DNA from: Dehalococcoidia bacterium
Lineage (GTDB): Bacteria; Chloroflexota; Dehalococcoidia; GIF9; UBA5629
Length of the DNA stretch: 64,000 bases
Direction: 5' to 3'
NCBI GenBank assembly: GCA_050011565.1
Contig: JBEKIW010000003.1
Span: 128,001 to 192,000 of the forward strand
The position numbers and the translations under genes are program-made. Below the pieces are notes generated by a model. It was not told the origin of the DNA, did not search any database, and saw only the letters and a program-made list of their open reading frames with translations. This document shows positions 1 through 15,166 of this stretch, piece by piece (position 1 is the first letter of the stretch; each line of letters opens with the position of its first letter).

Positions 1-1208
1 GTCAGCGGAGTAATTTTGCCGCTAACTATCTGGAGAACTCGATTAAATTTGTCAAGCCTGTTATCACCGGGTGTGTAACTTACAGCACCATGAAGTCCGG
101 CAACATCGTAGTTCTGCAGCTTTTGTATGCCCTGGGTCTCCACGGCCTGCCAGGCTGCGGCATCGCCTTTGGCCAGCGTGTCATAGCCGACGTTCTTCAC
201 CGCCAGCTCCAGAGCCTTGGCCACAATCAGACCCTGTGCCCACGAGACCATATAGTCAGCATTACCTACATTCTCGGGGTGATACTGCTGGCAATATTCC
301 ACCATCTTGGCCATGCCCGGCACATTATCTCCCCACTGCACCGTTGGATATACACCATAAACGCCTTCGACGACATCGGCACCACCCAAATCAATCAGAG
401 CTTTGGTCATGCCAGCATGGCAGCAACCGATGGTTACGCCCGGATACATGCCCAGGTCTCTGGCATTCTTGATAATAACCGCGGTCGGCGCCGGTGTACT
501 GGAAATATACAGTACGTCCGGGGTCAAGCCTTTAACTCGCGTTAGCGTATCCATTTCAGAGGTCGTGGTCGCCGCATGCTCATCCATGGAGACGACCTCA
601 ATGCCCAGTTCGTCAGCCTTGGCCTTGAAGGCATCTCGAGCCCCGTATCCCGTGGGATTGTTAAGCATAAGTAGTGCAAATTTAGGCTTGCCCGTACCCT
701 TCCAGATGTTCTTCATGTAGTAGTTAGCGAAAACTATAGCGTCATCGCCATAGTCAGGTGTTTGGCCGTAGATATGCGCTGGCGGCCGGTACAACGAAGG
801 CGAGCTGAAGCAGGAAATGCCCGGGAATCCCGCCTCGTTGGCAGCCCCCTTAGCGGGTGACATCTCGGCAGAAGCCGCCGTGGTAAATAACAGACAGCCA
901 CTAGACATGAATCCATTAACGATGGTGACCACTTTAGTAGGGTCGTAGTTGCTATCTAGAATTGTAGCCTCAATCGGGTATCCGCCGGCGCCGCCCAGTT
1001 CGGTATTAATGTATTTAATAACGTCGGTGTTACCGTTCATCATGGGAAGCCCCTTCTCAGCGGCTTTACCCGTAGAGGGGTTCATCATACCGATTTTCAA
1101 TACCTGTCCGGGTTGAGCTTTAGGGGCACAAGCACCGGCAAAGGGCATCACCGCTATTACCAGCGCCAAGCATAAAACTCCAATTACCATTAACGATTTT
1201 TTAGTCAA
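1..1208 (-). CDS. ABC transporter substrate-binding lipoprotein, LivK/Peripla_BP_6 family (runs off the window start)
   Basis: Not in the ORF track. Read by hand from TTG at 1208 after AGGAGG: MTKKSLMVIGVLCLALVIAVMPFAGACAPKAQPGQVLKIGMM. Lipobox AGAC; lies downstream of livH/livM-like permeases. Confidence 0.85.
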   Translation of the reverse strand, partial: MTKKSLMVIGVLCLALVIAVMPFAGACAPKAQPGQVLKIGMMNPSTGKAAEKGLPMMNGNTDVIKYINTELGGAGGYPIEATILDSNYDPTKVVTIVNGFMSSGCLLFTTAASAEMSPAKGAANEAGFPGISCFSSPSLYRPPAHIYGQTPDYGDDAIVFANYYMKNIWKGTGKPKFALLMLNNPTGYGARDAFKAKADELGIEVVSMDEHAATTTSEMDTLTRVKGLTPDVLYISSTPAPTAVIIKNARDLGMYPGVTIGCCHAGMTKALIDLGGADVVEGVYGVYPTVQWGDNVPGMAKMVEYCQQYHPENVGNADYMVSWAQGLIVAKALELAVKNVGYDTLAKGDAAAWQAVETQGIQKLQNYDVAGLHGAVSYTPGDNRLDKFNRVLQIVSGKITPL

Positions 1209-1279
1209 AGCATTAACCTCCTAAAAATATTTTACGCCCGGTAACTATTTATAAACATTACATCTTCATGCCTCCTCGT

Positions 1280-2329
1280 TTAATATGAGAACGGCCACAG
1301 ACGGTAAGCGGCCTTGAATAGTGCCCAGCGATGCGCCAGCCCCCGTGGCTCCAGAATTAGAAACAATATGATGGCCAGGCCGAACACCATCGGCCCCAGG
1401 CCGGTAGTAAAGCCGGTCGACAGCGAGGGTATGGCGTTTTCAATGAATGGAGATATATAAATAACCACCTGCTGCAGAAGTCGTATAACCACCACACCCA
1501 GAATAGGACCGATGGTCGTGCCCAGTCCGCCGATAATCACCATACCTATATACAGTATAGAGTCGGTTAGTGTAAAGTTCTCGGCATTCAAAAAGCCGGT
1601 CCAGTGTGCGAGCAGGGCACCGGCAATTCCAGCCAGAAAACAGCCGATGAAGAAAGCCAGAAGCTTGTAGTAAAGCAGATTGATACCCATTACTTCAGCC
1701 GCCAGGTCGTTATCCCTGACGGCAATAAAGGCTCTGCCCACCCTGCCCCTGGCCAGATTTTTAGCCAGAAATATACACAGCGCCACAATGACCATAATCA
1801 GGTAGAACTGGCTGGCTTGACTTCTAAACACGAAACCGAAAATAGAGGCACGGGGAACGTCCATGCCCACAAAGCCGCCGGTTACCGACCAGTGGTTGAT
1901 AATCCAGATGATGATAAATTGAGCGGCAATGGTGGTAATCGCCAGATAAAAACCTTTAACCCGCACCGACGGCAAGCCGAAGATAATACCTATCAGCCCG
2001 GCACTGAAACCGGAACAAATAAGTCCAGCTAAGAATGGAAGGCCAAGCCTGCTGGTCAAAATTGCTGTAGTATAGGCACCTACCGCCATAAAACCGGCAT
2101 GCCCGATGGATAGCTGTCCGCAGTAGCCGATAAGTATATTCAAACCGGTAACAGCGATTATAGTAATCCCTATTAAGTTGAATATGCCCAGCCAGTTATC
2201 ACGTAAATACAACGGCGCGGTAAAAACAAGGATTAAAAATCCGATAAAAAATGCCCAGTGAGTCTTGGTCCGCAGGACGGCCATGTCCCTGGCGTAATCG
2301 TAATTACGCGTACCGCTGGGTAAATCCAT
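1280..2329 (-). CDS. livM: Branched-chain amino acid-type ABC permease (LivM-like)
   Basis: GLNILIGYCGQLSIGHAGF, GFYLAITT, GRAFIAVRDNDLAAEVMGIN motifs. Confidence 0.9.
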   Translation of the reverse strand: MDLPSGTRNYDYARDMAVLRTKTHWAFFIGFLILVFTAPLYLRDNWLGIFNLIGITIIAVTGLNILIGYCGQLSIGHAGFMAVGAYTTAILTSRLGLPFLAGLICSGFSAGLIGIIFGLPSVRVKGFYLAITTIAAQFIIIWIINHWSVTGGFVGMDVPRASIFGFVFRSQASQFYLIMVIVALCIFLAKNLARGRVGRAFIAVRDNDLAAEVMGINLLYYKLLAFFIGCFLAGIAGALLAHWTGFLNAENFTLTDSILYIGMVIIGGLGTTIGPILGVVVIRLLQQVVIYISPFIENAIPSLSTGFTTGLGPMVFGLAIILFLILEPRGLAHRWALFKAAYRLWPFSY

Positions 2330-2332
2330 TAC

Positions 2333-3217
2333 TTATATCCTCTCTATCCGCGTCTCGCCGAAAAGCCCGTAAGGCTTGATAATCATGACGATTATTATAA
2401 TGATGAACGGAATAATATCTTTAATCCCCGGCCCGATCAGCGGCGTGAGATAGCCGCCGCCAAAGTTTTCGCACAACCCTATTATCGGTCCGGCCACCAT
2501 GCAGCCGATAAATGAATCCAGGCCGCCCAGTATCACCACCGAGAACGATTTCAGCCCGGTCTCCACCAGCCCAAAGGTGACGCCACCAATGCTGGAGACG
2601 AGCACACCACCGATAGCTGCCACCACGCAGGCAAAAATCCACGATATTGAAAAAACGCTGGTCACCGGAATAGCGCATGCCTGTACCGCCATCTGGTCGT
2701 CAGCGGTCGCCCTCATGGCTATACCCATCTTGTGGTATTTAAAAAACAAGGATAGAAGGCCAAACAGCGCTAGAGATATGACCGCCGCCCACATATATTC
2801 CTGAGAAACTACTGCCGGACCGATATGAATCGGCTGCTGGGGGAAAAGACGAGGCAAACGAGCGACGCTTACGGGCCAGACAAAAGTAACCAGGCCTTCA
2901 AGAAAATAGGCCACACCCAGCGTTACCGTAATCAACGCCAATATCGGTTGAGCAATCAGCGGACGTAAGGTGAATCGCTCTATAGCCCAGCCCAGGAATA
3001 CGGCAAAGACAATAGTCAGCGGCAGTCCGACCCAGTAGGGAAACTTGGCCTGCACCAGCATACCGTAGGTAAACCATGAGGAAATCAAAACGAGCTGCCC
3101 CAGTGCCAGGTTAGCCACGCTGCTGGACTTCCATATTAAGGCAAAACCCAGGGCGATAAGCGCATAAACCATGCCCACTGCTAAACCCGTAATAGTATAT
3201 TGAAGCAGTTCAGCCAT
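2333..3217 (-). CDS. livH: Branched-chain amino acid-type ABC permease (LivH-like)
   Basis: GMVYALIALGF, GIAMRATADD, VVILGGLDS, KPYGLFG motifs. Confidence 0.9.
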   Translation of the reverse strand: MAELLQYTITGLAVGMVYALIALGFALIWKSSSVANLALGQLVLISSWFTYGMLVQAKFPYWVGLPLTIVFAVFLGWAIERFTLRPLIAQPILALITVTLGVAYFLEGLVTFVWPVSVARLPRLFPQQPIHIGPAVVSQEYMWAAVISLALFGLLSLFFKYHKMGIAMRATADDQMAVQACAIPVTSVFSISWIFACVVAAIGGVLVSSIGGVTFGLVETGLKSFSVVILGGLDSFIGCMVAGPIIGLCENFGGGYLTPLIGPGIKDIIPFIIIIIVMIIKPYGLFGETRIERI

Positions 3218-5434
3218 TTAATTCACCTGCCTGACGTTGATAGCCGTGCTGACCACACCGTGTCTACCGTCTCTGTATGTCACGGGTGCCTCGACAGTCA
3301 CGTTCTTTTTATCTCCGTACATTGCCTCAATCAAGTCCTTATACCGCTGTTCCACAAAGTCCCGGCGCAGTTTTCTGGTCCTGGTAAGCTCGGCTTCATC
3401 GGCGTCGAACTCCTTATGCAGCAGGACGAATTTCCTGACTCTGGAACCCTCCGGCAAATAGCTGTTCACGCGGATTAAGTCCTTCTGTACCAGATCGGCA
3501 ACTTCTTTTTTCTGGGACAGGTCGACGAAAGTGGTATACGGAAGACCGTGACGCTCTGCCCATTTGCCCACCATGGCGAAATCTATATTGACTATGGCGC
3601 CAACGAAGCCTCTCTCCTTGCCACCCACAACCATGGCATCTTTTATGTAGGGACTGAACCTGAGCCTGCCCTCGATATACTGAGGTGCATACTTCGTGCC
3701 GGAAGCCAGCTCACCCATGTGTTCCACGCGGTCCATGAATATCAGGTGTCCCTGGTCATTGATGTTAACCGCGTCGCCTGTCCGGCACCAGCCGTTTACT
3801 ACCACCGCCACCGTCTTCTCCGGGTCCTTAAAGTATTCTTTGAAAAGACATTCACTTCTGACCAGCAGTTCTCCTTCATCGGTCACTCTAACTTCCACGC
3901 CTGATGCCGGCCGGCCCACGCTCTGAAAATCAATCTCCCCTTTGCCGTGAGAGGAGATAAAGCCGGCTTCGGTACTGGCATAGTTCTGTCTCAGTTCAAT
4001 GCCAATGGCATGTATTAAGCGGAAGGTATCCAGGCTGAGCACCGAGCTGCCGGTAACGGCCAGTCTGGCTTTAACCAACCCCAGCCTATCCTTCAGTGGT
4101 CTAAAAAGCAATGCGTACGCTAATCCGTACAGCGTCCGCCAGAACAAGTCCGGTGTCTTGCTTTCGAAGCTCAGGTCGGCCATCTTATAGCCTACCGGCA
4201 TAAACAGGTTATAAAAGAAGCGCTTTATGGGGTTGGCATCGGTTATTTTCACCTGGATTTCGCTGACCAGGCTCTCCCATTGACGAGGCCCGTAGATAAC
4301 AAAGTCGGGGCCGACCTCCCGCGTATCCTCGGCAATTGTCTCCGGCTCCTCGGGAAAGTTAATCCTGGCGCCGGTCAGCAAATGGGGTACGGTAGCAAAA
4401 AAGCTGTCGCCCACCCAGGCCGGCGGGAAGTTAGAGACCAAATCATCGTTGCCCGTAAACGGAAAACGGTCAACAAATCCCCGAGAGGTATTTATCAGCG
4501 CTTTATGGGTAATCACCGCCCCTTTGGGCAAACCGGTAGTACCGGAGGTATAGTAAATAAAGGCGGTGTCACTACCTTTCCCCTTCTTCACATTCTGCTC
4601 GAATAATTTCGGATGCTTTTTTTCGTATTCCTTGCCCTGATCAACAACGTCGACAAAATTCAGTAAGAACGCCGTTGGCCATAATCCCTCTTTTAAAAAG
4701 AGTATCGCATCTTCGATAAGCTTCTCATCGTCAGGCGTAAGAATTATCTTATCAGGATGACCGTCAGGCCTTTTAATGGTGATGTTTTCGCGACTCATTT
4801 TTTCAAATATAGGTATAAACTCATTGAGTTGGCTGCGTATTTTCTCTTTATGGATTTCAACGTTCTTTAGTTCTTTGACTCGGGAAAGCCTTTCGATCTG
4901 TTCGTGGCTAATGGGGAAATTTAAACTATCCTCGCATTTTAGCAATAGATCACACATTTTATTAACAAATTCATTTTTGGCAATTGGCAAAGTCTCTGGA
5001 TAATTTTTCAGCCCCTTCGGGTCCCAGTAAATCACTTTCTTCAGCGAAGGCAGTTCCTCCTTTATCTCAAGGAATTTATCGGTCTGCTCCTGGTCATTGA
5101 CAATGGCGAATTTGGCACCCGCGTGAGCGGCGACGTATTTCACTTCGGAAGGTATGGCGTCGACGAAAATGCCGGTGGCGATACCGCCAGCGGCTTGGGC
5201 TGCAAACTCTCCCCAGAACCATTCCGGCTCATTGTCGCCGATGATGCAGACCACGTCTCCGGGCTTAAAGCCCAGGCTTATCAAGCCCAAAGAGAAGGAT
5301 TTCACATTTTCGTAATATTCTTTCCAGCTATATCGCCGCCAGATGCCGCGGTGCTTCATGGACATGGCAGTCCTCTGACCCCACTTCTCGCAGTTGCTCT
5401 TTATCAGTTGCGGTATCGTCTCGCTATCAGCCAT
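3218..5434 (-). CDS. AMP-forming acyl-CoA ligase (long-chain FACS-like family) with an internal insertion of about 110 aa
   Basis: YTSGTTGLPKG AMP-binding signature, YASTE, GWCRTGD, ELTRTRKLRR. Confidence 0.9.
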   Translation of the reverse strand: MADSETIPQLIKSNCEKWGQRTAMSMKHRGIWRRYSWKEYYENVKSFSLGLISLGFKPGDVVCIIGDNEPEWFWGEFAAQAAGGIATGIFVDAIPSEVKYVAAHAGAKFAIVNDQEQTDKFLEIKEELPSLKKVIYWDPKGLKNYPETLPIAKNEFVNKMCDLLLKCEDSLNFPISHEQIERLSRVKELKNVEIHKEKIRSQLNEFIPIFEKMSRENITIKRPDGHPDKIILTPDDEKLIEDAILFLKEGLWPTAFLLNFVDVVDQGKEYEKKHPKLFEQNVKKGKGSDTAFIYYTSGTTGLPKGAVITHKALINTSRGFVDRFPFTGNDDLVSNFPPAWVGDSFFATVPHLLTGARINFPEEPETIAEDTREVGPDFVIYGPRQWESLVSEIQVKITDANPIKRFFYNLFMPVGYKMADLSFESKTPDLFWRTLYGLAYALLFRPLKDRLGLVKARLAVTGSSVLSLDTFRLIHAIGIELRQNYASTEAGFISSHGKGEIDFQSVGRPASGVEVRVTDEGELLVRSECLFKEYFKDPEKTVAVVVNGWCRTGDAVNINDQGHLIFMDRVEHMGELASGTKYAPQYIEGRLRFSPYIKDAMVVGGKERGFVGAIVNIDFAMVGKWAERHGLPYTTFVDLSQKKEVADLVQKDLIRVNSYLPEGSRVRKFVLLHKEFDADEAELTRTRKLRRDFVEQRYKDLIEAMYGDKKNVTVEAPVTYRDGRHGVVSTAINVRQVN

Positions 5435-5462
5435 AGCCTAATGCCTTAATCTGCCCCTTAAC

Positions 5463-5490
5463 AAAAAAGCCTCCCGCCTGGGAGGCTTTT
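5463..5490 (-). terminator. Attenuator terminator hairpin upstream of the acyl-CoA ligase
   Basis: Minus strand AAAAGCCTCCC-AGGC-GGGAGGCTTTTTTGTT, about 30 nt before the start codon. Confidence 0.9.
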
Positions 5491-5523
5491 ACTTTCTGTT
5501 TTATCTTATTCCTGCTCTATGGT

Positions 5524-5610
5524 TTAGTTCGATGTGCTCCCAGGCGCAACGGCAGGCAGGCTAAAGAAAAAGAAGAAAAATAAATTAAAACTGCGAGCCT
5601 GAGTCTGCAT
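5524..5610 (-). CDS. Phe-rich leader (attenuator) peptide MQTQARSFNLFFFFFFSLPAVAPGSTSN
   Basis: 28 codons with 6 consecutive Phe plus 1 more; sits between a promoter and a terminator; contains a 10-nt antiterminator complement. Confidence 0.85.
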   Translation of the reverse strand: MQTQARSFNLFFFFFFSLPAVAPGSTSN

Positions 5611-5630
5611 TTCGAACTTCACGAAACGAG

Positions 5631-5659
5631 ATAGTATCATAACAGATTCAGCCTGTCAA
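5631..5659 (-). promoter_or_regulatory. Sigma70-type promoter of the Phe leader
   Basis: TTGACA-17 nt-TACTAT with TG extension. Confidence 0.75.
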
Positions 5660-5690
5660 TAGATTGAAAGCTATCGCAATATCTCTCTCT

Positions 5691-5743
5691 TTGATTTTTT
5701 ACTTGTACTTTTGACCTTTGGTTTTTAAATTTTGATTTTCGTT
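5691..5743. repeat. T-rich dispersed repeat built of TTTTGA(C)-like units, copy 1
   Basis: Aligns along its length with 52714-52766. Confidence 0.7.
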
Positions 5744-6651
5744 TACTCTGCCTTCGGTGGTGCCGGGTTTACCAGGCCGGCTGCCAGCGTGCCGGGCATG
5801 AAGTCGAACAGCTCGTCAATCGTCCAGCCACCGATCTTGACCAATGCTTTTTCCTGCACCGGCTCGGAAAATAGAGCCACCGTTCCCGTCTGAACGAAGA
5901 AAGTACGGCCGTTTACATTAGCGGCAGCGTCAGATGCCAGCCAGACGACCAGCGGCGCGATGTCGTTGGGGTCCATCTTCTCCATGGCGGCGATGATAGC
6001 CTCTCTTCCCGCCTTCTTCCAGGCGGCTTTCAGCTCATCGCTCAACGTCATCCTAGTGCCGGCATTGGGCCTGATAGCATTGCAGGTCACGCCATACCTG
6101 CCCATGTCTCTGGATACCTGCCGGGTGAAGCCGACAATGCCTTCCTTGGCAGCGCCGTAATTCGCCTGACCGAAGGTGGCGCCCAGTCCGGCAAGTGATG
6201 ATGTATTTATGATGCGCCCGCTTTTCTGTTCCCTGAAAAGAGCACAGGCGAACTTGGTGGTGAAAAAGTGGCCGTAGAGATGCACTTTCATCACCAGGTC
6301 CCAGTCTTCCTCGGTCATGTTGTATATCATCTTGTCGCGGAGAATTCCGGCGTTGTTGACCAGTATATCCAGCCTGCCGAATTTGTCGACGGCAGTTTTG
6401 ATAATGTTTTCGCCGCCGACCAGCGTGGTCACCGAGTCGTAGTTGGCTACGGCTTCTCCACCCATCTTCTTGATTTCGTCTACTACTTTATCCGCTGCCG
6501 ACGTGGAAGTGCCCGTACCAGCAACGGTGCCGCCGAGGTCATTGACCACCACTTTGGCACCCTCGGATGCCAGCGCCAGAGATTCACCCCGGCCGATGCC
6601 GCCGCCGGCGCCGGTGACCACAGCTACTTTGCCCTTCAGTCTATCGCCCAT
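5743..6651 (-). CDS. SDR family oxidoreductase (3-hydroxyacyl-CoA dehydrogenase/MFE-2-like)
   Basis: TGAGGGIG, VVNDLGG, NNAGILRD, YGAAK. Confidence 0.9.
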   Translation of the reverse strand: MGDRLKGKVAVVTGAGGGIGRGESLALASEGAKVVVNDLGGTVAGTGTSTSAADKVVDEIKKMGGEAVANYDSVTTLVGGENIIKTAVDKFGRLDILVNNAGILRDKMIYNMTEEDWDLVMKVHLYGHFFTTKFACALFREQKSGRIINTSSLAGLGATFGQANYGAAKEGIVGFTRQVSRDMGRYGVTCNAIRPNAGTRMTLSDELKAAWKKAGREAIIAAMEKMDPNDIAPLVVWLASDAAANVNGRTFFVQTGTVALFSEPVQEKALVKIGGWTIDELFDFMPGTLAAGLVNPAPPKAE

Positions 6652-6696
6652 TTTTTAACTCCTTTTCGTTTTTATTTTACGCAAAGATAAACTTGT

Positions 6697-6909
6697 TTAA
6701 GATTTAACAACAAATATCGGGATGAGAATTCCCAGATAAATCAGCACTCCCGCTGCCATCCAGATTATGGCGATAACCTGCATATCTCTCGCTTTTTGTT
6801 TCTTTTCATTTTCAGGTGCTCGAAAATATCTTCCTAAATAAAAAAGGGGCAGTCCGATAGCTATCATGACTACTCCCATTACCCATAAAATCAGTCTGGT
6901 AATATCCAT
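6697..6909 (-). CDS. Small two-TM hypothetical membrane protein
   Basis: 70 aa, two hydrophobic segments, AGGGG SD, co-oriented with neighbours. Confidence 0.6.
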   Translation of the reverse strand: MDITRLILWVMGVVMIAIGLPLFYLGRYFRAPENEKKQKARDMQVIAIIWMAAGVLIYLGILIPIFVVKS

Positions 6910-6958
6910 TACTATACCCCTTTTGGAATATTTTTGAGTTCAAACGATTCGCAAAAAG

Positions 6959-7423
6959 CTAACTCTTGTTCGGCAGTATGACGGTAGCCGTACCGGGAGT
7001 GGTCACCTCGCCCTTGCCGTTCTCAATCCAGATATCGCAGTCCGCGCAGTGCTCACCGCCCTCGGCGTATTTCTTGGTGACCTTACCCTTGCACTGCCAG
7101 GTCTCGCCTTCTTCAGGTGTCATCGGCGTGGCCATCTTCCGCGGCCAGTCCATGGCACGGTAGCTGCAGGCGAATTTCTTCAGCGTACCCTGCTCACCCA
7201 TCCAGTCGGTCATCAATTGGACCAGCCACTGTCGCTTCAAGGCGCCGTGGACAATGGGGCTGCCCACTCCCTGAACAGCAGCAAAGGCGGCGTCATAGTG
7301 AAGCGGATTGAAGTCGCCCGAGGCGCCCGCCCATTTGACCAGCATACGGGTGGTAGCTATTTTTGGTAACGGCGTTACCTCACCGCCTACCTCAACATTT
7401 TCCCAGTAAAGTTGTTTAGCCAT
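6959..7423 (-). CDS. MaoC-like (R)-enoyl-CoA hydratase subunit
   Basis: ASGDFNPLHYD...IVHG hydratase-2 motif. Confidence 0.85.
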   Translation of the reverse strand: MAKQLYWENVEVGGEVTPLPKIATTRMLVKWAGASGDFNPLHYDAAFAAVQGVGSPIVHGALKRQWLVQLMTDWMGEQGTLKKFACSYRAMDWPRKMATPMTPEEGETWQCKGKVTKKYAEGGEHCADCDIWIENGKGEVTTPGTATVILPNKS

Positions 7424-7441
7424 CTTATTCCTCCTCGAATG

Positions 7442-7942
7442 CTAGCGATAAATAGCAGTGGCGCGGGCTATAGCCACCAGCTCATCTTTCTGGTTATGAT
7501 AAGTTGTCTCGATAATTACAAAAGCCATCTTGCCCGTTTTGCCTTCCCGCTCAGTGACGTCTTTAATCATTGATTTGGCTGACAACATATCGCCGGCGCG
7601 GACCGGCAGGAAAAACTCGTACTCTATGCCGCCATCGACAACGCGCCAGTAGCCTCCTTTAGCCAGTGCCGCCCTCATACCCTCGGCAACTTCCGGAGGG
7701 TCGCTGATATCAGTGGGCCGCTGGAAGGTCATGCCTCTGGGCAGATTGACCGGCCAGCCGAAGAAGCCGGGAGGCGCGATAATCGAACCGTATCTCGATT
7801 TCCCGGCATGTTTTTCGTCCCAGTAAAGCGGATTGGTTTCTTCCACGGCATCGGCAAAGCGCTTGATAGACCCCTTCTCCACCTCGCAGGCAACAACACC
7901 GATGCTTTTCCCGATGAATTTGCTTATCTCTTCCGGCAGCAT
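7442..7942 (-). CDS. MaoC N-terminal (FAS1-dehydratase-like) hotdog partner subunit
   Basis: IKRFADAVEETNPLYWD...IIAPP, YEFFLPVRAGD. Confidence 0.85.
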   Translation of the reverse strand: MLPEEISKFIGKSIGVVACEVEKGSIKRFADAVEETNPLYWDEKHAGKSRYGSIIAPPGFFGWPVNLPRGMTFQRPTDISDPPEVAEGMRAALAKGGYWRVVDGGIEYEFFLPVRAGDMLSAKSMIKDVTEREGKTGKMAFVIIETTYHNQKDELVAIARATAIYR

Positions 7943-8074: not shown

Positions 8075-8878
8075 ATGCAAAAAGTCAAATGGCCATCAAC
8101 TATTATCGGTATCGCAATTCTCCTTATCGGGTGGGGGTTGGATATGGCTGGAATAACGAATATGATAGTGGCCATTGTTTTATGGGTTGTTGGTGGCATA
8201 CTTCTTATCATCGGTATTTCTTCATGGATATATTATTTCTGGCCTTGGTTTAAAAAAGTATTCTGGAAAGGGAAAAAGAATACATCTATTACAACGGAAG
8301 ATTATGCCCAAAATAAAGAGGTGGATAAATTAAGACGTATAAAAGCAAATTTAATACATTTTAGAAGAGAACTAAATTGGATTTTGTATCTTTACACACA
8401 CGATTTATTTGGGAATCTTGATAATAAACTTAAAAAACATGAACTTCTAGAAGGGGAAGAATTCAAAGATGACATATCTGTATTTGACGAGATATATGGA
8501 TATTATAACTGGGAATATGGTTATGCTATACGAAAATATGATGCTGCAAAATTAGTCTATCCATTCAATAAGAGACACATTGAGGGTACTTTTGCCAAGG
8601 CATTGGGCGCTTTAAGTAAAATTGAAAAACAAATAAATGGGTTTCCCATGCTTTTGGAATTGAATGATGAGGCATCTCACATAATGGGATTATCATCTGA
8701 AATAGACAAATATAGGTTATTGTTAAACGAGTGGTCAACAAACAAAAATATTGATAAACCCATTATCGATTATTATGGTAATGATTTAGTTACACTGGGC
8801 ACAAAAATCTGGACTATTTTAAAGGCCATTAATAACGAGATAGAAAAGATTCCAAATGAAGTTAAATTAGGGTCGTAA
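8075..8878 (+). CDS. AT-rich hypothetical protein with two N-terminal TM helices
   Basis: 267-aa open frame, visibly lower GC than flanks; no motif recognised. Confidence 0.65.
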   Translation: MQKVKWPSTIIGIAILLIGWGLDMAGITNMIVAIVLWVVGGILLIIGISSWIYYFWPWFKKVFWKGKKNTSITTEDYAQNKEVDKLRRIKANLIHFRRELNWILYLYTHDLFGNLDNKLKKHELLEGEEFKDDISVFDEIYGYYNWEYGYAIRKYDAAKLVYPFNKRHIEGTFAKALGALSKIEKQINGFPMLLELNDEASHIMGLSSEIDKYRLLLNEWSTNKNIDKPIIDYYGNDLVTLGTKIWTILKAINNEIEKIPNEVKLGS

Positions 8879-9007
8879 GTACTTTATATTTTAAATTATC
8901 AGCGCTAATGAATTTCAAAAGTGTATGACTAAACAAATATAGATTCTCACGATTGTTAAATAGCCATTCTAATTCATCGGGATAATTTTTATTATTTTGA
9001 CCTGCCG

Positions 9008-9145
9008 CTACATACACCTCCCCACCGACTCAGCAATAAGCTTAAGCTCAGCCATCACACCGGTTCTTGCCGATTTCGGTCAGTAGCGCGTTGTTCTCCA
9101 TATTCCTGGCTCCGACCTGAAGTATATCGGCGCATTCTGCTACCC
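9008..9145 (-). pseudogene. Internally deleted remnant of a second DAHP synthase gene
   Basis: 9012-9057 matches the aroF 3' end (about 9597-9642); 9058-9140 matches aroF at about 10002-10085. Confidence 0.8.
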
Positions 9146-9244
9146 GGATAAACTCAGCTTAAAGGTACACTTTTGTTCATATTTTATTGAAACCTTGATG
9201 GAGAGTGCTACAATGGATACAGCAATAAAAGCAAGGAGGTTATC

Positions 9245-9466
9245 ATGGAAGAGTCTGTAGGTAAGGTTGTCACGTTAATCGGATCCAGTCGCGAGTCCTT
9301 CGAAAAGGCTATTGCAAATGCTGTAGCGGCGGCAGCGAAGACATTGCATGAGATACACGTTGCCGATGTACGGAAGCTGTATGTGCACGTTGAGAATGGC
9401 AAGATTACCAGCTATCGGGCAAGGGTCAGGGTGGCCTTTCAATACGATCCAAAATATAAGAAGTAG
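9245..9466 (+). CDS. Dodecin family flavin-binding protein
   Basis: KVVTLIGSSRESFEKAIANAVAAAAKTL...VENGKITSYRARVRVAF; AGGAGG SD. Confidence 0.9.
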   Translation: MEESVGKVVTLIGSSRESFEKAIANAVAAAAKTLHEIHVADVRKLYVHVENGKITSYRARVRVAFQYDPKYKK

Positions 9467-9592
9467 TTATAATCCGGTAAGCTGCTAGACCCTCTATACG
9501 ACTAATAGTTTATGATGATTTCAGGTCAGGTGGCCTGCGAAGTAATTGCAGCCTGTTGCTACCTGAGAAGTTCTGTTTTTGTGACCGGCCAG

Positions 9593-10609
9593 CTAAATAT
9601 ACCTCCCCACCGCCTCGGCAATGAGCTTAAGCTCGGTCATCAACCGGGCAAAGTCCGACGGTGTCAGCGATTGGAGGCCATCCACCAGGGCTTCCTTGGG
9701 GTTGGGATGGGCTTCGATGAGGAGACCGTCGGCACCGGCGGCTATAGCCGCTTTAGCCAGCGCGGGCACCAGAGAATAATGTCCGGCGGCGTGGCTGGGG
9801 TCGACAACTAAAGGCAAGTGGCTGGATTTCTTTATCACGGGAATCGAGCCGATATCCAGAGAAAAACGAGTGCTGTCCTCGAAGGTCCTGATGCCCCTCT
9901 CACATAAAATAACCCGGTCATTGCCACCAGCCAATAAATAGTCGGCGGCGGTAAGCCATTCGGTAACCGTAGCCGATAAGCCCCGCTTAAGTAGAACAGG
10001 GCACCGGCTCTTACCGATTTCGGTCAGTAGCGCATAGTTCTGCATATTCCTGGCTCCGACCTGGAGTATGTCAGCATACTGCGATACCCTGTCGACATCA
10101 TGAGGTGCCACCACCTCAGTGATTACAGGCATGCCGAATTGCTGCTTGGTCTGCTGTAACATCTTTAGACCGGCCTCCTCCAGACCTTGAAAGGCAAAAG
10201 GTGAGGTGCGCGGTTTATAGGCGCCGCCTCGTAGAATGCAGGCTCCAGCCTCCTTAACCATCATGGCTGCCGCCATGAGCTGTTTCTCGCCTTCGACGGC
10301 ACAGGGGCCGGCCATGACCACAATGCGCTTGCCGCCGATTTGAACCCCGTTGACGGAAACTACGGTGTTCTCCGGTTTGAACTCGCGGGCACTGAGCTTG
10401 TACGGCTTCATAATCCTGGTCACGCTCTCCACACCGGGGAGAACGGCAAAGATGTCAATAGGCAGCTGGCCGGTATTGGGTCCCAGCAAAGCGACGACCA
10501 CCTTGTTGGTGCCCAGATTCAACTGGACGCCCAGCCCTAGCTCCTTGGCCCGCTGCACGACGTCGTCTACTTCTGCTTGAGGAGCGCCGGTTCTCATTTC
10601 AACTATCAT
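9593..10609 (-). CDS. aroF: DAHP synthase, type I-beta with N-terminal ferredoxin-like regulatory domain
   Basis: AGPCAVE, RGGAYKPRTSP, QVGARNMQN, LCERGIRTF, VDPSHAAG. Confidence 0.95.
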   Translation of the reverse strand: MIVEMRTGAPQAEVDDVVQRAKELGLGVQLNLGTNKVVVALLGPNTGQLPIDIFAVLPGVESVTRIMKPYKLSAREFKPENTVVSVNGVQIGGKRIVVMAGPCAVEGEKQLMAAAMMVKEAGACILRGGAYKPRTSPFAFQGLEEAGLKMLQQTKQQFGMPVITEVVAPHDVDRVSQYADILQVGARNMQNYALLTEIGKSRCPVLLKRGLSATVTEWLTAADYLLAGGNDRVILCERGIRTFEDSTRFSLDIGSIPVIKKSSHLPLVVDPSHAAGHYSLVPALAKAAIAAGADGLLIEAHPNPKEALVDGLQSLTPSDFARLMTELKLIAEAVGRYI

Positions 10610-10634
10610 GATTGTAACTCCTTAATTTTTTTCA

Positions 10635-10670
10635 CCCTCACCCTGACCCTCTCCCCTCAAGGGAGAGGGA
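10635..10670. repeat. REP-like palindrome CCCTCACCCTGACCCTCTCCC-CTCAA-GGGAGAGGG
   Basis: CCCTCTCCC/GGGAGAGGG stem located inside the aroF 5' UTR. Confidence 0.7.
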
Positions 10671-10676
10671 ACATTT

Positions 10677-10709
10677 AAAAACAGAAAGCCTCCCGCGGGG
10701 CGGGAGGCT
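10677..10709 (-). terminator. Attenuator terminator upstream of aroF
   Basis: Minus strand AGCCTCCCGC-CCC-GCGGGAGGCT-TTCTGTTTTT. Confidence 0.85.
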
Positions 10710-10740
10710 CTTTTTGCCTTAGATATTTTGCTGCTGTTTT

Positions 10741-10830
10741 TTAGGTCGATGCCATCCCAGACCCGCGCCGAGGCGTGCTAAACCAAAAGCCAAAGAAAAA
10801 CCAGCTATAGCTGCGAGTCAGGTTATGCAT
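10741..10830 (-). CDS. Aromatic-rich leader peptide MHNLTRSYSWFFFGFWFSTPRRGSGMAST
   Basis: 29 codons; 8 aromatic residues (Y, 2 W, 5 F) in a 10-codon stretch; lies between a promoter and a terminator upstream of aroF. Confidence 0.88.
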   Translation of the reverse strand: MHNLTRSYSWFFFGFWFSTPRRGSGMAST

Positions 10831-10849
10831 TTCGACCATGGTGTTTAGA

Positions 10850-10879
10850 ATGATAGCAATAAATGTTGAACGTTGTCAA
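10850..10879 (-). promoter_or_regulatory. Sigma70-type promoter of the aroF leader
   Basis: TTGACA-18 nt-TATCAT with TG extension. Confidence 0.75.
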
Positions 10880-10928
10880 CCAGATCAGGGTCCGTCTAAT
10901 ATGGATAAAAGTTTAAATCCTAAATTAG

Positions 10929-11088
10929 AAAATCCCTCTCAATCTCCCTTTACGAAAGGGAGAGGTTAGTTGCTAGCTTTGCGAAAGGGAGAAGCTGGTT
11001 TTTGCCCGTTGCTACTCTCCCCCTTAGAAAAAGGGGGATTAAGGGGGATTTAAAATCACTCTCAGTCTCTCCTTACGAAAGGGAGAGG
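10929..11088. repeat. Cluster of REP-like palindromes (AAATCCCTCTCAATCTCCCTTT-acg-AAAGGGAGA family) in both orientations
   Basis: About four related units; same family as 15254-15328. Confidence 0.75.
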
Positions 11089-11119
11089 TCCCATCAATCC
11101 AGGAGGAAAAGGAGCAATA

Positions 11120-11575
11120 CTAGACCAGGGGAATTGTGGTGCCGGTGGCTTTGGCGATGAGCTTGCCGTCCTGGTTGGTCACCATCATCTCGGAGATGCA
11201 GACCCGCCTGCCGGCCCTGACCACACGGCATTCGGCGATAAGCTCGTCTTTCACATCGGCGCTGGCGACAAAATGGATGTTGAACTGCGAGGCTACGTTA
11301 GGAGTGATTACGGAGTTGGTGCCGTAGGCGAAAGCCTGGTCAGCCACAGCCATGATAATGCCGCCGAAGACCAGGTTATTGAAGTTAAGGTATTCGGGCT
11401 TAAGCTTCGCCGATACTCTGGCATAGCCCTCGGATAACTCCAGCAACTTTATGTCTAAAAATTTGGCGATAGGCTCACTACCGGCTTTTGCCTTCAAGGC
11501 TGCTACATTGTCAGAGGCATTGGCGCCCACAGCGGCATTTGCTCCGGGTTTTTGTTTATCAGTTTTCTTATCCAT
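11120..11575 (-). CDS. PaaI family hotdog thioesterase
   Basis: FLDIKLLELSEGYARV...LNFNNLVFGGIIMAVADQAFAY; the usual HGG appears as FGG. Confidence 0.85.
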   Translation of the reverse strand: MDKKTDKQKPGANAAVGANASDNVAALKAKAGSEPIAKFLDIKLLELSEGYARVSAKLKPEYLNFNNLVFGGIIMAVADQAFAYGTNSVITPNVASQFNIHFVASADVKDELIAECRVVRAGRRVCISEMMVTNQDGKLIAKATGTTIPLV

Positions 11576-11581
11576 AATATA

Positions 11582-12769
11582 TTAACGCAAGCCAAATTTT
11601 TTGGCTGCTTTTTTGAAGCCGTCCAGAGAACCTTTTAAGGTCTTGTCATCAACGCAGTACGAAATGCGAAAATAGCCCGGTGTGCCGAAGCCCCGCCCCG
11701 GCACCACCAGCACATTCCACTGCCGCAGCTCGTTGACAAAGGCAACGTCATCCTCTACCGGCGACTTAGGAAACATGTAGAAAGCACCATGCGGCTTTAC
11801 CACCGAGTAGCCCAGGTCAACAAGATTGCCATAAAGAAAATCCCTCTTCTTTTGATAATCGGCTATAGAGACGGTGACATGCTGCAGGTTCTTCACCAGG
11901 TGCTGCATCAACGCCGGTGCATTGACAAATCCCAAAATCCGGGTGCAGAAAATAAAGCCGTTGACCAGCTCATCATGCTGGCTGCAATCCGGATGTATGG
12001 CGATATAACCAATGCGCTCACCAGGTAGCGCCAGGTCTTTGGAATGGGAATGAACAACTATGGTGTGGCGGTGGTGATGGAAAACAGGCGGGTATGGCAA
12101 CCCGTCAAATATGATTTTGCGATATGCCTCGTCGCTTATAAGATAAATCTGCTTGTCGTTTTGAGCCTCTTTTCGACGCAGCAGCTCGCCTAATTGCATC
12201 ACCAGGTCCCGGCTGTAGACCGCGCCGGTCGGGTTATTAGGAGAATTGATAATGACGGCTTTTGTCTTGGTCGAAATGGCGGCTTCAAGGGAATCCAGCT
12301 TCGGCACAAATTGCTCATTCGTGGGCAAGACCTTGATAACTCCACCGTGATTATCTATGTAGTTGCCGAATTCCATGAAGTAAGGAGCGAACACAATCAC
12401 CTCGTCTCCGGGATTCAGTATTGTCTTCAATACCACATTCAAGCCGCCGGCAGCGCCGCAGGTCATGACAATATCGTTGCCGCAGAATTTAATGCCGGTC
12501 TCGTGCGAGAGCTGTACGGCAACGGCGGCTCGTGTGTCTGCATAACCGGCATTCTCCATATATCTGTGCATACCCGGCACAGGTTTTTTCATCAGCTTCT
12601 TCAATTCCTGGTTAAACTCAGGCGGCGGCTCCATGACCGGATTCCCCAGGGACAGGTCGAAAACATCCTTCTCACCGTATCGCTTTTTGAGATTAGCCCC
12701 TTCCTCGAACATCCTCCGTATCCACGACCCCTCCATCATGCGTTTGCTGACATTATCTGACACCGGCAC
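11582..12769 (-). CDS. Class I/II PLP-dependent aminotransferase (aspartate/aromatic type)
   Basis: NSPNNPTG, SDEAY, SHSKDLALPGERIGY. Confidence 0.9.
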   Translation of the reverse strand: MPVSDNVSKRMMEGSWIRRMFEEGANLKKRYGEKDVFDLSLGNPVMEPPPEFNQELKKLMKKPVPGMHRYMENAGYADTRAAVAVQLSHETGIKFCGNDIVMTCGAAGGLNVVLKTILNPGDEVIVFAPYFMEFGNYIDNHGGVIKVLPTNEQFVPKLDSLEAAISTKTKAVIINSPNNPTGAVYSRDLVMQLGELLRRKEAQNDKQIYLISDEAYRKIIFDGLPYPPVFHHHRHTIVVHSHSKDLALPGERIGYIAIHPDCSQHDELVNGFIFCTRILGFVNAPALMQHLVKNLQHVTVSIADYQKKRDFLYGNLVDLGYSVVKPHGAFYMFPKSPVEDDVAFVNELRQWNVLVVPGRGFGTPGYFRISYCVDDKTLKGSLDGFKKAAKKFGLR

Positions 12770-13352
12770 GAGACATCTCCTCCCTGCCTTTATCGAAGGC
12801 GACCATGTTCATTTTTAGAATGTTGGGTGACAGCCGTTGAGAAATGCAGTCTTTCCAAACATCAATGCCAATGGGCAGAAACGAAGATAAACAGCCCAGC
12901 ATAATCATATTCAGCGTCCTGATATCGCCCAGTTCCTTAGCCTGGCGGGTGCCATCAACGAAGTAAAAACGCTCAGCCCACTGCCGCAATATGCCCTCTA
13001 TCTCCTTATCGCCCGGGTACCGCTGGGTCCCTAGGCTCACCGACAATGGCGGCGTCGACTGATTATTGACAATGGAGGCACCGCCCTCGTGTAAATAGTA
13101 GCTCCACCTGGCTGCCTCCAATTTCTCGAAAGCGACCAGTATATCGACCTCGCCTTCTTTGATTAAAGGCGACCACACCTTATCAGATATACGAACATGA
13201 CTGACGACGCTGCCGCCTCGCTGTGCCATACCCAACGTATCCGTTTTCTTGACATCATAACCGGCAGCCAGTGCCACCTCACCCAGTATATCGCTGGCCA
13301 GAACTATACCCTGCCCGCCTACGCCCACCATAAGCAAGTCCTGCTTTTTCAC
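12753..13352 (-). CDS. iorB: Indolepyruvate:ferredoxin oxidoreductase beta subunit
   Basis: VGVGGQG, GMAQRGGSVVSHVR; likely GTG start at 13352 overlapping the iorA stop. Confidence 0.92.
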   Translation of the reverse strand: MKKQDLLMVGVGGQGIVLASDILGEVALAAGYDVKKTDTLGMAQRGGSVVSHVRISDKVWSPLIKEGEVDILVAFEKLEAARWSYYLHEGGASIVNNQSTPPLSVSLGTQRYPGDKEIEGILRQWAERFYFVDGTRQAKELGDIRTLNMIMLGCLSSFLPIGIDVWKDCISQRLSPNILKMNMVAFDKGREEMSRAGVR

Positions 13353-15166
13353 TTCGACTCTCCGACAGCAGTCAATGGGCCTATTGCCTTTTTGGGGCAG
13401 AGCTGCTCGCAGATGGTACAGGCAGCACCAGCACACAGCGCGGCATCGATGTAAATCTGCTCATCCAGATTTTGTATTGCCGGACAGCCGATTCTCAGGC
13501 ACGTCTCGCAGTCGTCGCATTTTTCTATATCAACAGCTCTTTGGCCGGAGCGCTTTCGCAGCCGTACCGAGCAAGCTCCGCGGACTATTATGACAGACAG
13601 CTCAGGGTTATCCAGCGAACTTCTCACCGCCGCTCTAAGAGCTTTCATATCAAAGGCGTCAACTACCTTGACGTCGTTAACTCCGACGCCTTTAACCAGC
13701 CGCTCCAGCTCAACCATCCGGGTCTTTTTGCCCTTGGCTGAAACTCCCGTTCCGGGATGGTCCTGGTGTCCGGTCATAGCCGTAGTGCCGTTATCCAGTA
13801 TGATAATCGTCACTCCCGATTTGTTGTAGACGGCATCGACCACGCCGGTAATACCGGAATGGAGGAACGTGGAGTCGCCGATAACAGCCACCACCTTGCC
13901 CTCAACGCCGGCCTTCTCCATTCCCAGAGCCTGACCGATGCCCGCACCCATACAGGCGGTAGTATCCATAGCGCGCAGCGGCGGATAGGTAGCCAGCGTA
14001 TAGCAGCCGATATCGCCGGTGATAATCAACTTCCCTTGCTCTTCCGACTTGCCTCTGGCATCCAGCAGCTTGGACCTCTGGCCTATGGTGTTAAGCACAA
14101 AGAATATGCCGGCATGCGGACAACCGCCGCACAGGACGGGGGGCCGTCCCGGTAATCCCTGCGGCAGCGGCACCTGCCTGCGTGAAGGCTTGGCTAATAG
14201 TCCAGCACGGTAACCGGCTGCCTCGACAATGCCCGGATTCAACTCACCGATTCTGGGGATGAACTCCTTTCCCGTCACCTTTATACCCATGGCCAGTATA
14301 TTTTCCTCCAGGAATGGGTCGAGCTCTTCAATAACGATTAGCCTGTCCACCTGTGCGGCGAACTCTTGGAGTAACTTCCGCGGCAGCGGATAGGTCATGC
14401 CCAGCTTAAGAAAAGAAGCCCTGGGAAATGCCTCTCTGGCGTACTGGTAGGCAACGCCGCTGCTGACCACACCGAGGTGGCATTCTCCCTTGATTATCTG
14501 GTTGCCGGGAAAGGTATCGGCATAGGCAGTAAGCTTGACCAGGCGCTGCTCGACGACCGGCCTCCGGAGACGGACATGAACTGGCAGCATGACATATTTC
14601 TCTACATCGTGCTTGAAGCTGGCTGGATTTGCCGGCGCCACCCGGCTCCGGTTCGTCTCCACCACGGACTTGGAATGAGAAATGCGGGTGCTGGAGCGCA
14701 CCAGCACCGGCGTATCGAACCGCTCACTGAGTTCAAAGGCAACAGCCATCAATTCATAGGCTTCCTGGCTGTCGCTGGGCTCAAGCATGGGCACCTTAGC
14801 CAGTTTGGCATAGTGGCGCGTGTCCTGCTCGTTCTGGGTGCTGAAGACACCAGGGTCATCGGCTACAATCACCACCAGTCCACCATTAATGCCGGTTATA
14901 GATGCCGCCATAAAAGGATCACTGGCTACATTCAGTCCCACCTGCTTCATGGATACCAGAGCTCGAACTCCAGCATAAGCGGCTCCCATGCCCAGCTCCA
15001 TAGCCACCTTCTCATTCGTCGACCACTCCGCGTAGACATCGTCAAAGCGGGCTATCGATTCAAGTATTTCGGTGCTGGGCGTACCGGGATAGGCTGCTGC
15101 CACCATAACGCCGGCATGATAGGCTCCGAGGGCAAAGGCTTCGTTTCCGGAGAGCAGTTTTTTCAT
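13349..15166 (-). CDS. iorA: Indolepyruvate:ferredoxin oxidoreductase alpha subunit
   Basis: LLSGNEA, YPGTPSTE, GDIGCY, GDSTFLHSG TPP motif, C-terminal 2x[4Fe-4S]. Confidence 0.95.
   Translation of the reverse strand: MKKLLSGNEAFALGAYHAGVMVAAAYPGTPSTEILESIARFDDVYAEWSTNEKVAMELGMGAAYAGVRALVSMKQVGLNVASDPFMAASITGINGGLVVIVADDPGVFSTQNEQDTRHYAKLAKVPMLEPSDSQEAYELMAVAFELSERFDTPVLVRSSTRISHSKSVVETNRSRVAPANPASFKHDVEKYVMLPVHVRLRRPVVEQRLVKLTAYADTFPGNQIIKGECHLGVVSSGVAYQYAREAFPRASFLKLGMTYPLPRKLLQEFAAQVDRLIVIEELDPFLEENILAMGIKVTGKEFIPRIGELNPGIVEAAGYRAGLLAKPSRRQVPLPQGLPGRPPVLCGGCPHAGIFFVLNTIGQRSKLLDARGKSEEQGKLIITGDIGCYTLATYPPLRAMDTTACMGAGIGQALGMEKAGVEGKVVAVIGDSTFLHSGITGVVDAVYNKSGVTIIILDNGTTAMTGHQDHPGTGVSAKGKKTRMVELERLVKGVGVNDVKVVDAFDMKALRAAVRSSLDNPELSVIIVRGACSVRLRKRSGQRAVDIEKCDDCETCLRIGCPAIQNLDEQIYIDAALCAGAACTICEQLCPKKAIGPLTAVGESK

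Follow-up and report, generated by a model that had tools for sequence, protein, structure and literature searches.

Genes and features of the locus

The DNA analysed here, referred to as the window, is a stretch of 64,000 nucleotides (nt) from a Dehalococcoidia bacterium of the phylum Chloroflexota (GenBank assembly GCA_050011565.1, contig JBEKIW010000003.1, positions 128,001 to 192,000). The source genome comprises 2.0 Mb and is 99.2% complete. The first 15,166 positions of the window carry an operon for an AMP-forming acyl-coenzyme A (CoA) ligase and a Liv-type ATP-binding cassette (ABC) importer, the genes of an indolepyruvate:ferredoxin oxidoreductase (IOR), IorAB, together with an aminotransferase and a PaaI-like thioesterase, and aroF, which encodes a 3-deoxy-D-arabino-heptulosonate 7-phosphate (DAHP) synthase. 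The ligase operon and aroF each lie behind a leader-peptide attenuator, and both of these attenuators are real. Based on sequence comparisons, we consider it probable, if well short of certain, that these genes form an aromatic-amino-acid supply module of the Dehalococcoidia in which the salvage of arylacetates would be gated by a phenylalanine (Phe) attenuator.

All genes concerned are located on the minus strand, in the transcription order iorA, iorB, aminotransferase, PaaI-like gene, aroF, two hot-dog genes and a short-chain dehydrogenase/reductase (SDR) gene, ligase, LivH, LivM and binding protein. The main features, including the leader open reading frames (ORFs), are as follows:

5631..5659, minus strand: promoter-like site of the ligase leader, TTGACA-17-TACTAT with TG
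5524..5610, minus strand: ligase leader ORF, MQTQARSFNLFFFFFFSLPAVAPGSTSN, which includes FFFFFF
~5597-5603 and ~5537-5545, minus strand: ligase leader region 1 and region 2 (antiterminator 5' arm), respectively
5465..5490, minus strand: terminator of the ligase attenuator (regions 3 and 4), followed by a T run
3218..5434, minus strand: FACS-like AMP-forming acyl-CoA ligase of 738 amino acids (aa), candidate arylacetate-CoA ligase (PF00501 and PF23562)
2333..3217, minus strand: LivH-like permease (PF02653, BPD_transp_2)
1280..2329, minus strand: LivM-like permease (PF02653, BPD_transp_2)
1..1208, minus strand: substrate-binding lipoprotein of 421 aa (PF13458, Peripla_BP_6)
10850..10879, minus strand: promoter-like site of the aroF leader, TTGACA-18-TATCAT, 11/12 matches, TG extension
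10741..10830, minus strand: aroF leader ORF, MHNLTRSYSWFFFGFWFSTPRRGSGMAST, mixed Phe/Trp/Tyr, which includes SYSWFFFGFWF
10685..10711, minus strand: terminator of the aroF attenuator, 12-pair stem with T run, fold z -3.35, following the 2:3 versus 3:4 logic
9593..10609, minus strand: aroF, DAHP synthase of type I-beta with ferredoxin-like N-domain (NF006421 467 bits, cut-off 335; PF18152)
15238-15209, minus strand: promoter-like site of iorA
13349..15166, minus strand: iorA, alpha subunit of an indolepyruvate/arylpyruvate:ferredoxin oxidoreductase (TIGR03336 690.2 bits, cut-off 650.9; Pfam POR_N and TPP_enzyme_C)
12753..13352, minus strand: iorB, beta subunit (NF005322 237.8 bits, marginally above the cut-off of 237)
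11582..12769, minus strand: class-I pyridoxal phosphate-dependent aminotransferase (NF005305 556 bits, cut-off 376)
11120..11575, minus strand: PaaI-like hot-dog thioesterase (TIGR00369 68.3 bits, cut-off 36.6)

The first-pass annotation, made from the letters and the ORF translations alone, had named these genes and operons, and the profile matches place them on the minus strand where it had located them. The SDR gene, the two hot-dog genes, a low-GC ORF at 8075-8878 and an insertion of 107 aa in the ligase had not been named there. The overlapping or adjacent order of iorA, iorB, aminotransferase and PaaI that it described could be reproduced in detail. The likely GTG start of iorB at 13352 shares the letters GTGA with the TGA stop of iorA, the aminotransferase gene overlaps iorB by 17 nt, and the PaaI-like gene starts 6 nt past the aminotransferase gene. 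Its statements that the ligase operon is under Phe attenuation and that aroF is attenuated are borne out by a promoter, a leader ORF and a terminator in each case, and the ligase leader is conserved in relatives. The same holds true for its placement of the ligase in the FACS-like type and not in PaaK: the ligase carries PF23562 instead of PF14535 (AMP-binding_C_2) and is absent among the TIGR02155 matches of the genome. The best NCBIfam family, FadD11 (NF038343), reached 224.5 bits compared to a cut-off of 950, and the assignment is therefore limited to the AMP-binding superfamily.

Both IOR subunits exceed their curated cut-offs and are encoded side by side; the family match of IorB starts at residue 29 of the longest ORF. 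Among the relatives of the aminotransferase in the PDB are aspartate and aromatic aminotransferases. The thioesterase passed the general hot-dog family TIGR00369 but stayed below the cut-off of the PaaI equivalog family (TIGR02286, 80 bits versus 118.9), which is why it is labelled PaaI-like; its nearest solved structures are PaaI of E. coli (E 4.6e-11) and of Thermus. The aroF product combines a DAHP_synth_1 catalytic domain with the ferredoxin-like N-domain and belongs to type I-beta. The importer is of the Liv type (HAAT), comprising two BPD_transp_2 permeases, a Peripla_BP_6 protein and two ATPases, one with BCA_ABC_TP_C. The last 19 codons of the binding protein gene lie beyond the start of the window and the full length was read in L001. 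There, the gene is followed by that of a LivF-like ATPase, likewise outside the window, and the gene of a LivG-like ATPase is convergent on the other strand.

Leader-peptide attenuators in the window and in relatives

The two leaders show the parts of a classical attenuator, namely a translated short ORF with a Phe run, an intrinsic terminator in front of the first structural gene and an antiterminator that shares the 5' arm of the terminator. Both promoter-like sites are strong, and both terminators are G+C-rich hairpins with a T run. In an alignment of 289 columns, the two leaders showed a mean column identity of 74%. Since a genome-wide scan of short ORFs for amino-acid runs was too noisy (464 matches), nhmmer and a scan for the terminator motif were used instead. 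With nhmmer, the ligase and aroF leaders were the sole two copies in the genome. Hairpins of the type CCYCC..GGRGG-T occur 16 times, and two of these are preceded by an aromatic-rich ORF, which are again the two leaders. A leader was also searched for upstream of iorA, of LivG and of the PaaK-like genes, and none was seen.

For comparison, 80 ligase loci were taken from the matches listed, with 194 further relatives beyond these; they originate from uncultured Dehalococcoidales/Dehalococcoidia of the Chloroflexota. In 79 of them the locus includes the ligase N-terminus and could be surveyed for a leader. A leader with an F run, meaning at least 5 Phe in 9 residues, lies 5' of the ligase in 20 of the 79, and a shorter core of TTC-NNN-TTT-ACC (Phe-x-Phe-Thr) in 54. 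The short-core leaders contain a small GCGCAC..GTGCGC hairpin, after which a like terminator follows (e.g. L072:9820-9900). Five of the 79 could be assigned to neither form, due to LivG lying directly upstream (three), too little sequence (one) or a leader that seems to be situated further upstream (one). The short core falls within an ATG-started open frame in 52 of the 54 cases, compared to 8 and 2 in the two alternative frames, and this bias indicates that the core is translated. Altogether, the conservation of Phe control over the ligase operon appears to be real.

The pairing scheme was examined in an alignment of 20 sequences, consisting of the two window leaders and 18 of the 20 F-run leaders of relatives. 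L022 and L044 were excluded; the leader peptide of L044 is identical to that of L043. The off state was paired in 80% of the cells and the terminator helices in 94-95%. For the antiterminator, formed by region 2 and the 5' arm of the terminator, 90.5% of the cells were paired compared to 30-61% in the slid control. Two of its pairs change on both sides, from GC to UA and from UA to CG, in four sequences each; these compensatory changes most likely come from one lineage.

The relation between the two leaders can be followed in the relatives. In L024 the leader peptides of aroF and of the ligase match at 25 of 29 residues and the aroF leader contains Phe only, while the aroF leaders of L017, L021 and L025 are rich in several aromatic residues. 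These observations point to a leader that may have been duplicated and then retuned. In two complete genomes of the same class (L099, L100) the leader reads MRYTGYAYFYFMFTGRT... and contains Tyr as well as Phe codons (L099:9940-10080, minus strand), and in another genus it reads MFQGRFGYTFSFTQRT....

Compared to known elements, the leaders resemble the Phe leaders of Proteobacteria (pheA, pheST; RF01859) in the short ORF with a Phe run, the intrinsic terminator and the mutually exclusive 1:2, 2:3 and 3:4 pairings. They differ in the genes that they control, a putative salvage operon and a DAHP synthase paralogue instead of pheA, and in the host, a member of the Chloroflexota. No match to RF01859 was obtained in the window at the gathering threshold of 55 bits, and a permissive Rfam scan of the whole loci of eight relatives gave two Phe_leader matches at chance level (28.7 and 28.5 bits, E 0.7-0.8). 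At gathering thresholds, Rfam identified only tRNA in the window, and neither a leader nor a T-box. A T-box or riboswitch was also considered as the regulatory element and dropped, since the Rfam match is lacking and the frame of the leader ORF is conserved. A literature search returned no paper on leader-peptide attenuation in Chloroflexota, most subscription journals being outside its reach.

Two aspects of the leaders weigh against the proposed sensing of Phe. The first is the codon usage. Most leaders of the relatives hold just two Phe codons, and in the short leaders these are invariably TTC and TTT (54 of 54), a synonymous change never being found. This suggests a constraint beyond coding, and the invariant codons could reflect a constraint on the RNA or on the nascent peptide and not the sensing of an amino acid. 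The second is the folding. At equilibrium, full-length leaders with the ribosome footprint masked folded into the terminator every time, and the switch must therefore be kinetic. In transcripts cut before region 4, the 1:2 pairing formed without a ribosome and the 2:3 pairing with ribosomes on the stretch from AUG to the stall site, and a ribosome at the stop codon left region 3 free. The folding would thus be consistent with the classical kinetic scheme of attenuation, which is a model here.

Linkage of the ligase operon to IorAB and PaaI

In the relatives, the usual order of genes is IorA-IorB-(aminotransferase)-PaaI-leader-ligase-LivH-LivM-binding protein-LivF, with LivG convergent. Neighbours were counted by tblastn with E of at most 1e-20, coverage of at least 50% and identity of at least 45%. 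Among the 66 loci with at least 1200 nt of upstream sequence, PaaI was located directly 5' of the ligase leader in 50. The 16 loci without an adjacent PaaI comprise 8 of the subclade of the window, in which aroF and the hot-dog/SDR genes are inserted, 3 with LivG upstream and 5 without markers. For the 50 loci with at least 4500 nt upstream, IorA and IorB were found in 27 and the aminotransferase in 21. In the upstream regions lacking IorAB that were inspected (L038, L079, L042), PaaI alone precedes the leader. A second arrangement was observed in three complete genomes of the same class (L099-L101; 1.36-1.52 Mb), where IorAB is read divergently from the ligase operon, which here encodes two binding proteins in tandem.

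The first-pass annotation had proposed to check the co-occurrence of the ligase with iorAB, and the outcome was in its favour. Based on 34 Dehalococcoidia genomes, each at least 95% complete, and thresholds of E at most 1e-40 for the ligase and 1e-100 for IorA, IorA was present in 15 of the 15 ligase-positive genomes versus 3 of the 19 ligase-negative ones, counts that ignore kinship and include related genomes, which are not independent samples. One of the three ligase-negative genomes with IorA carries a paralogue type of IorA that lies below the family cut-off. Within two genera (G123, G204), ligase and IorA are absent together. A wider tally (91 of 301 genomes) includes G173 and G272, which are flagged as unpublished; no claim is based on these two.

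The genomes G236 and G276 contain an IorA that passes the cut-off and lack the FACS-like ligase. Their modules resemble that of the window in that a Liv-type ABC importer, IorAB and an aryl-acid CoA ligase are clustered, with PaaI nearby. The order in G236 is binding protein-LivH-LivM-LivG-LivF-IorA-IorB-ligase-small ORF-aminotransferase-DAHP synthase-PaaI, and thus the aminotransferase and the DAHP synthase are also shared with the window; in G276 it is binding protein-LivH-LivM-LivG-LivF-IorA-IorB-ligase. The difference lies in the ligase, for which PaaK (TIGR02155) is the best family with 588.8 and 571.2 bits, below the cut-off of 646.3, and in the ABC components, which are 24-43% identical to those of the window. 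In the upstream sequence of both modules, which was read, no leader was seen. Since a PaaK-type ligase occupies the equivalent place, one module appears to have been built twice within the class from two unrelated ligase families. No other observation argues more strongly than this swap for a FACS-like ligase that would act as an arylacetate-CoA ligase. As far as the compared genomes allow, the ligase-ABC operon is tied to IorAB and PaaI by neighbourhood in two arrangements, by co-occurrence and by the swap of the ligase type.

These data also bear on the direction of the pathway. It could be argued that IorAB, the aminotransferase and PaaI are catabolic and ferment aromatic amino acids to aryl acids, that the ligase-ABC operon is for fatty or organic acids that have nothing to do with this route, and that their adjacency and the Phe codons are without metabolic meaning. 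IOR is indeed best known as a catabolic enzyme, its action in fermentation being described in the available part of PMC5817080, and binding proteins of the same family from R. palustris bind fatty and dicarboxylic acids according to passages of PMC3223731. The presence of a thioesterase and of an ADP-forming acyl-CoA synthetase would suit a catabolic route, and generic liv-plus-ligase operons occur without IOR. However, an induction by Phe starvation would be unexpected for an operon for unrelated acids, the same type of leader controls a DAHP synthase, the co-occurrence of ligase and IorA is not accounted for, and in the alternative module IorAB is found together with an ABC importer, a DAHP synthase and a ligase of the PaaK type. 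Taken together, we regard a catabolic role as highly improbable. Two features point to biosynthesis, namely the DAHP synthase that recurs within the module and the pairing of an AMP-forming ligase with IOR. AMP-forming ligases run solely in the direction of the CoA ester. For this reason, and in part as our own deduction, the combination with IOR would make sense only if the latter worked reductively.

Outside the class, the ligase operon has common counterparts. For 15 liv-plus-ligase operons of other Chloroflexota, about 9 kb were fetched on each side. They share the ligase family (40-51% identical) and the transporter family and order with the window. Their gene order is LivG-ligase-LivH-LivM-binding protein-LivF, LivG being the first gene there. 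In none of the 15 were matches to IOR, PaaI or the aminotransferase found within about 9 kb, nor a CCYCC..GGRGG terminator. Their LivF remains 57-68% identical, whereas the identity falls to 23-26% for the binding protein in 11 of the operons; in the other 4, no binding protein was detected. This divergence fits a changed specificity of the binding protein, and the Dehalococcoidia version looks like a re-purposed form of the common operon, in line with the new specificity proposed in the first-pass annotation. In one distant member of the Chloroflexota (L109:940-1000, plus strand), a small F/P-rich ORF (MADRREFPFFPFPPFSQH) is located behind a good promoter 5' of LivG; a terminator was not evident.

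Substrate, proposed pathway and significance

Across the 80 relatives, the operon always begins with the ligase gene, whose product is 71-93% identical; the binding protein is 54-86% identical in 31 aligned relatives and 49-86% within the class. The position and the better conservation of the ligase indicate that it is under selection within the operon. This is of importance for the possibility that the ABC system imports Phe or aromatic amino acids themselves, that the attenuator serves simply to increase this import, and that the ligase was retained from the ancestral liv-plus-ligase operon and does something unrelated. Attenuation by the transported amino acid would be logical, the Liv-type family includes binders of Leu, Ile and Val, and the top fold match of the binding protein is a valine-bound protein. 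Nonetheless, a carried-over ligase is hard to reconcile with its conservation, which exceeds that of the binding protein, and an import of Phe would leave the linkage to IorAB and PaaI, the co-occurrence and the exchange of PaaK for the FACS-like ligase unexplained. It is considered very unlikely.

The binding protein itself, for which the AlphaFold2 (AF2) model has a pLDDT of 91, gives little guidance in this respect, since sequence and fold searches against solved structures did not tell amino-acid, aromatic-acid and fatty-acid binders apart. One solved member of the family, 4dqd, binds 3-phenylpyruvic acid. This leads to a further alternative, in which the imported acid would be another precursor of Phe, such as 3-phenylpyruvate, phenyllactate or omega-phenylalkanoates that are shortened to phenylacetyl-CoA by the ligase, a hot-dog hydratase pair and the SDR. 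The genes concerned are:

7442-7942, minus strand: hot-dog protein (FAS1_DH/HadA-like)
6959-7423, minus strand: MaoC/HadB-like hot-dog protein
5743-6651, minus strand: SDR
8007-7979, minus strand: promoter-like site of the hot-dog/SDR genes

The two hot-dog proteins represent a split, (R)-hydratase-like pair, which together with the SDR is situated between aroF and the ligase in the window and only in its closest relatives (L017-L022). In addition to this position and to 4dqd, the long-chain type of the ligase would agree with such a substrate. On the other hand, no ligase or IOR is needed for phenylpyruvate, the genes of the hydratase pair and the SDR have their own promoter and are missing from most relatives, and neither an acyl-CoA dehydrogenase nor a thiolase was seen in the cluster. 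Accordingly, another precursor is conceivable and in our view unlikely.

Further observations were made around these genes. An ORF of 267 aa at 8075-8878 (plus strand) has a low GC content of 0.32 and no Pfam match; beside it, just 3' of aroF, lies a fragment of a DAHP synthase with two stops (~9057-9182, minus strand). Together they give the impression of inserted foreign DNA next to the remains of a gene. Several intergenic regions, at 10630-10670, 10930-11100 and 15260-15330, carry short palindromic repeats with the pattern CTCTCCCTTTCG..GGGAGAG. An A-rich stretch 5' of the ligase leader promoter (~5690-5740) is similar to two in L001 (14560-14600 and 15030-15080), which flank the gene of a '23S rRNA intervening sequence protein' between LivF and LivG.

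Returning to arylacetate salvage, the proposed pathway would proceed as follows. The leader-peptide attenuator would sense the charging of tRNA-Phe. With plentiful Phe, the ribosome would reach the leader stop and cover region 2, so that the terminator can form and the ligase-ABC operon is not expressed. When Phe is scarce, ribosomes would stall on FFFFFF, and region 2 would pair with the 5' arm of the terminator and allow readthrough. The resulting Liv-type importer with its lipoprotein binding protein would bring in phenylacetate, in some relatives possibly also 4-hydroxyphenylacetate, and the FACS-like AMP-forming ligase would convert phenylacetate to phenylacetyl-CoA. IorAB could then catalyse the reductive carboxylation of phenylacetyl-CoA to phenylpyruvate with reduced ferredoxin, and the co-encoded aminotransferase would yield Phe. 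Since the paralogous Phe/Trp/Tyr leader is expected to gate the extra DAHP synthase, de novo synthesis and salvage would rise together. For the PaaI-like thioesterase, the most likely task is the hydrolysis of aryl-CoA that is wrong or in excess; a role in CoA release or proofreading would follow the analogy of PaaI of E. coli. Phenylacetate as the substrate, the reductive direction of IOR and PaaI as a safety valve for CoA are what we infer from the data above. The salvage interpretation of the first-pass annotation, which had assigned import and activation of phenylacetate-like acids to the ligase operon, is supported by the comparisons. In its widest form, the claim is that a class-wide attenuator responding to tRNA-Phe, and in some genera also to tRNA-Tyr, gates the scavenging of arylacetates by the ABC importer, a FACS-like arylacetate-CoA ligase and a reversed IorAB, for which we see about an even chance.

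Several observations weigh against this interpretation. Apart from the kinship of the genomes counted and the codon usage and folding of the leaders, IorAB is not adjacent to the operon in 23 of the 50 loci with enough upstream sequence. A close characterised relative of the ligase was not found, the best match in the PDB having an E of 1.7e-19. In the fold search, the binding protein is 16-20% identical to its solved relatives, and the ligands of these, namely valine, caffeate, p-coumarate, 3-phenylpyruvate, 2-oxoacids and fatty acids, are about equally good matches. The ligase of the window contains an in-frame insertion of ~107 aa (4678-4999, minus strand), which replaces a loop of 4 residues and has a G+C content of 37% compared to 52% in the remaining gene. 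It is absent from all 80 relatives, and neither a repeat in the genome nor a look-alike in the Atlas was found for it. Furthermore, a thioesterase beside a ligase resembles a futile cycle.

The rest of the genome adds to these points. The first-pass annotation had suggested a look for pheA, and the gene is present: the genome encodes a prephenate dehydratase (pheA) with an ACT domain, a chorismate synthase and the full de novo route. Salvage would therefore be auxiliary and not required. Two further DAHP synthases are encoded at G000:C3:202384-203118 and C1:415805-416548, and neither lies at a copy of the leader according to nhmmer and the hairpin-motif scan. Three tandem PaaK-like ligases of the COG1541 type (G000:C1:45952-50038; L015:7952-12038) reach 133-190 bits to TIGR02155 and adjoin neither IOR nor a leader; these could activate phenylacetate in place of the FACS-like ligase. 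A second IorAB-like pair at G000:C1:684587-689470 (L008), with an IorA of 590 bits below the cut-off, is preceded by a FrhB/FdhB-like gene, and the same trio occurs in G087. Since an ADP-forming acyl-CoA synthetase is present in the genome, IorAB could also serve the fermentation of aromatic amino acids.

The chemistry of the proposed route is known from other organisms. The available parts of PMC6827263 and PMC7356843 describe the formation of Phe from phenylacetate in rumen organisms, and those of PMC4162585, citing Porat et al., an IOR-dependent route by which M. maripaludis turns aryl acids into aromatic amino acids. The likeness to these systems is that IorAB and the aminotransferase could convert aryl-acetyl-CoA, and that a de novo pathway coexists. 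The differences are the host from the Chloroflexota, the ABC importer and FACS-like ligase that are genetically tied to IOR, and the Phe-sensing attenuator in front of the uptake and activation genes. A second comparison can be made to the aromatic-acid ABC uptake systems of R. palustris (CouP and others). As described in passages of PMC3223731, the COG0683 binding proteins of this organism bind aromatic, fatty and dicarboxylic acids, and a LivK-like binding protein for an aromatic acid adjoins the CoA ligase for this acid, much as proposed for the window. In contrast to the module proposed here, these systems are catabolic, growth on p-coumarate raising the protein levels (same source). The R. 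palustris binding proteins are among the closest folds to that of the window, with an identity of just 16-20%. The ligases of these systems belong to other subfamilies of the AMP-binding proteins.

The module would combine two known things, the IOR-based salvage of aryl acids and leader-peptide attenuation. The reductive carboxylation of phenylacetate to Phe has been known for decades in rumen and other anaerobes, while its uptake and activation genes and their regulation are undefined in the searchable papers. A literature search returned no paper naming uptake or activation genes of this route, and a second one, which looked for phenylacetate, phenylalanine or indolepyruvate in the class Dehalococcoidia or in Dehalococcoides, no paper describing the module; most subscription journals were outside the reach of both. 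In this old pathway, the ligase-ABC operon probably covers the half that consists of uptake and activation. If true, these two steps would have been identified genetically for the first time, the widespread liv-plus-FACS operons would be extended to a new class of substrates, and the leaders would be the first leader-peptide attenuators described in Chloroflexota. As the module is carried by complete single-contig genomes of the same class, a direct test would be possible if any of these organisms is in culture. The regulatory element would then have been duplicated and retuned, responding to Phe only for salvage and to Phe, Trp and Tyr for the DAHP synthase. For cross-feeding Dehalococcoidia with small genomes, the module would explain how the cost of the shikimate pathway is spared by scavenging a common end product of fermentation.

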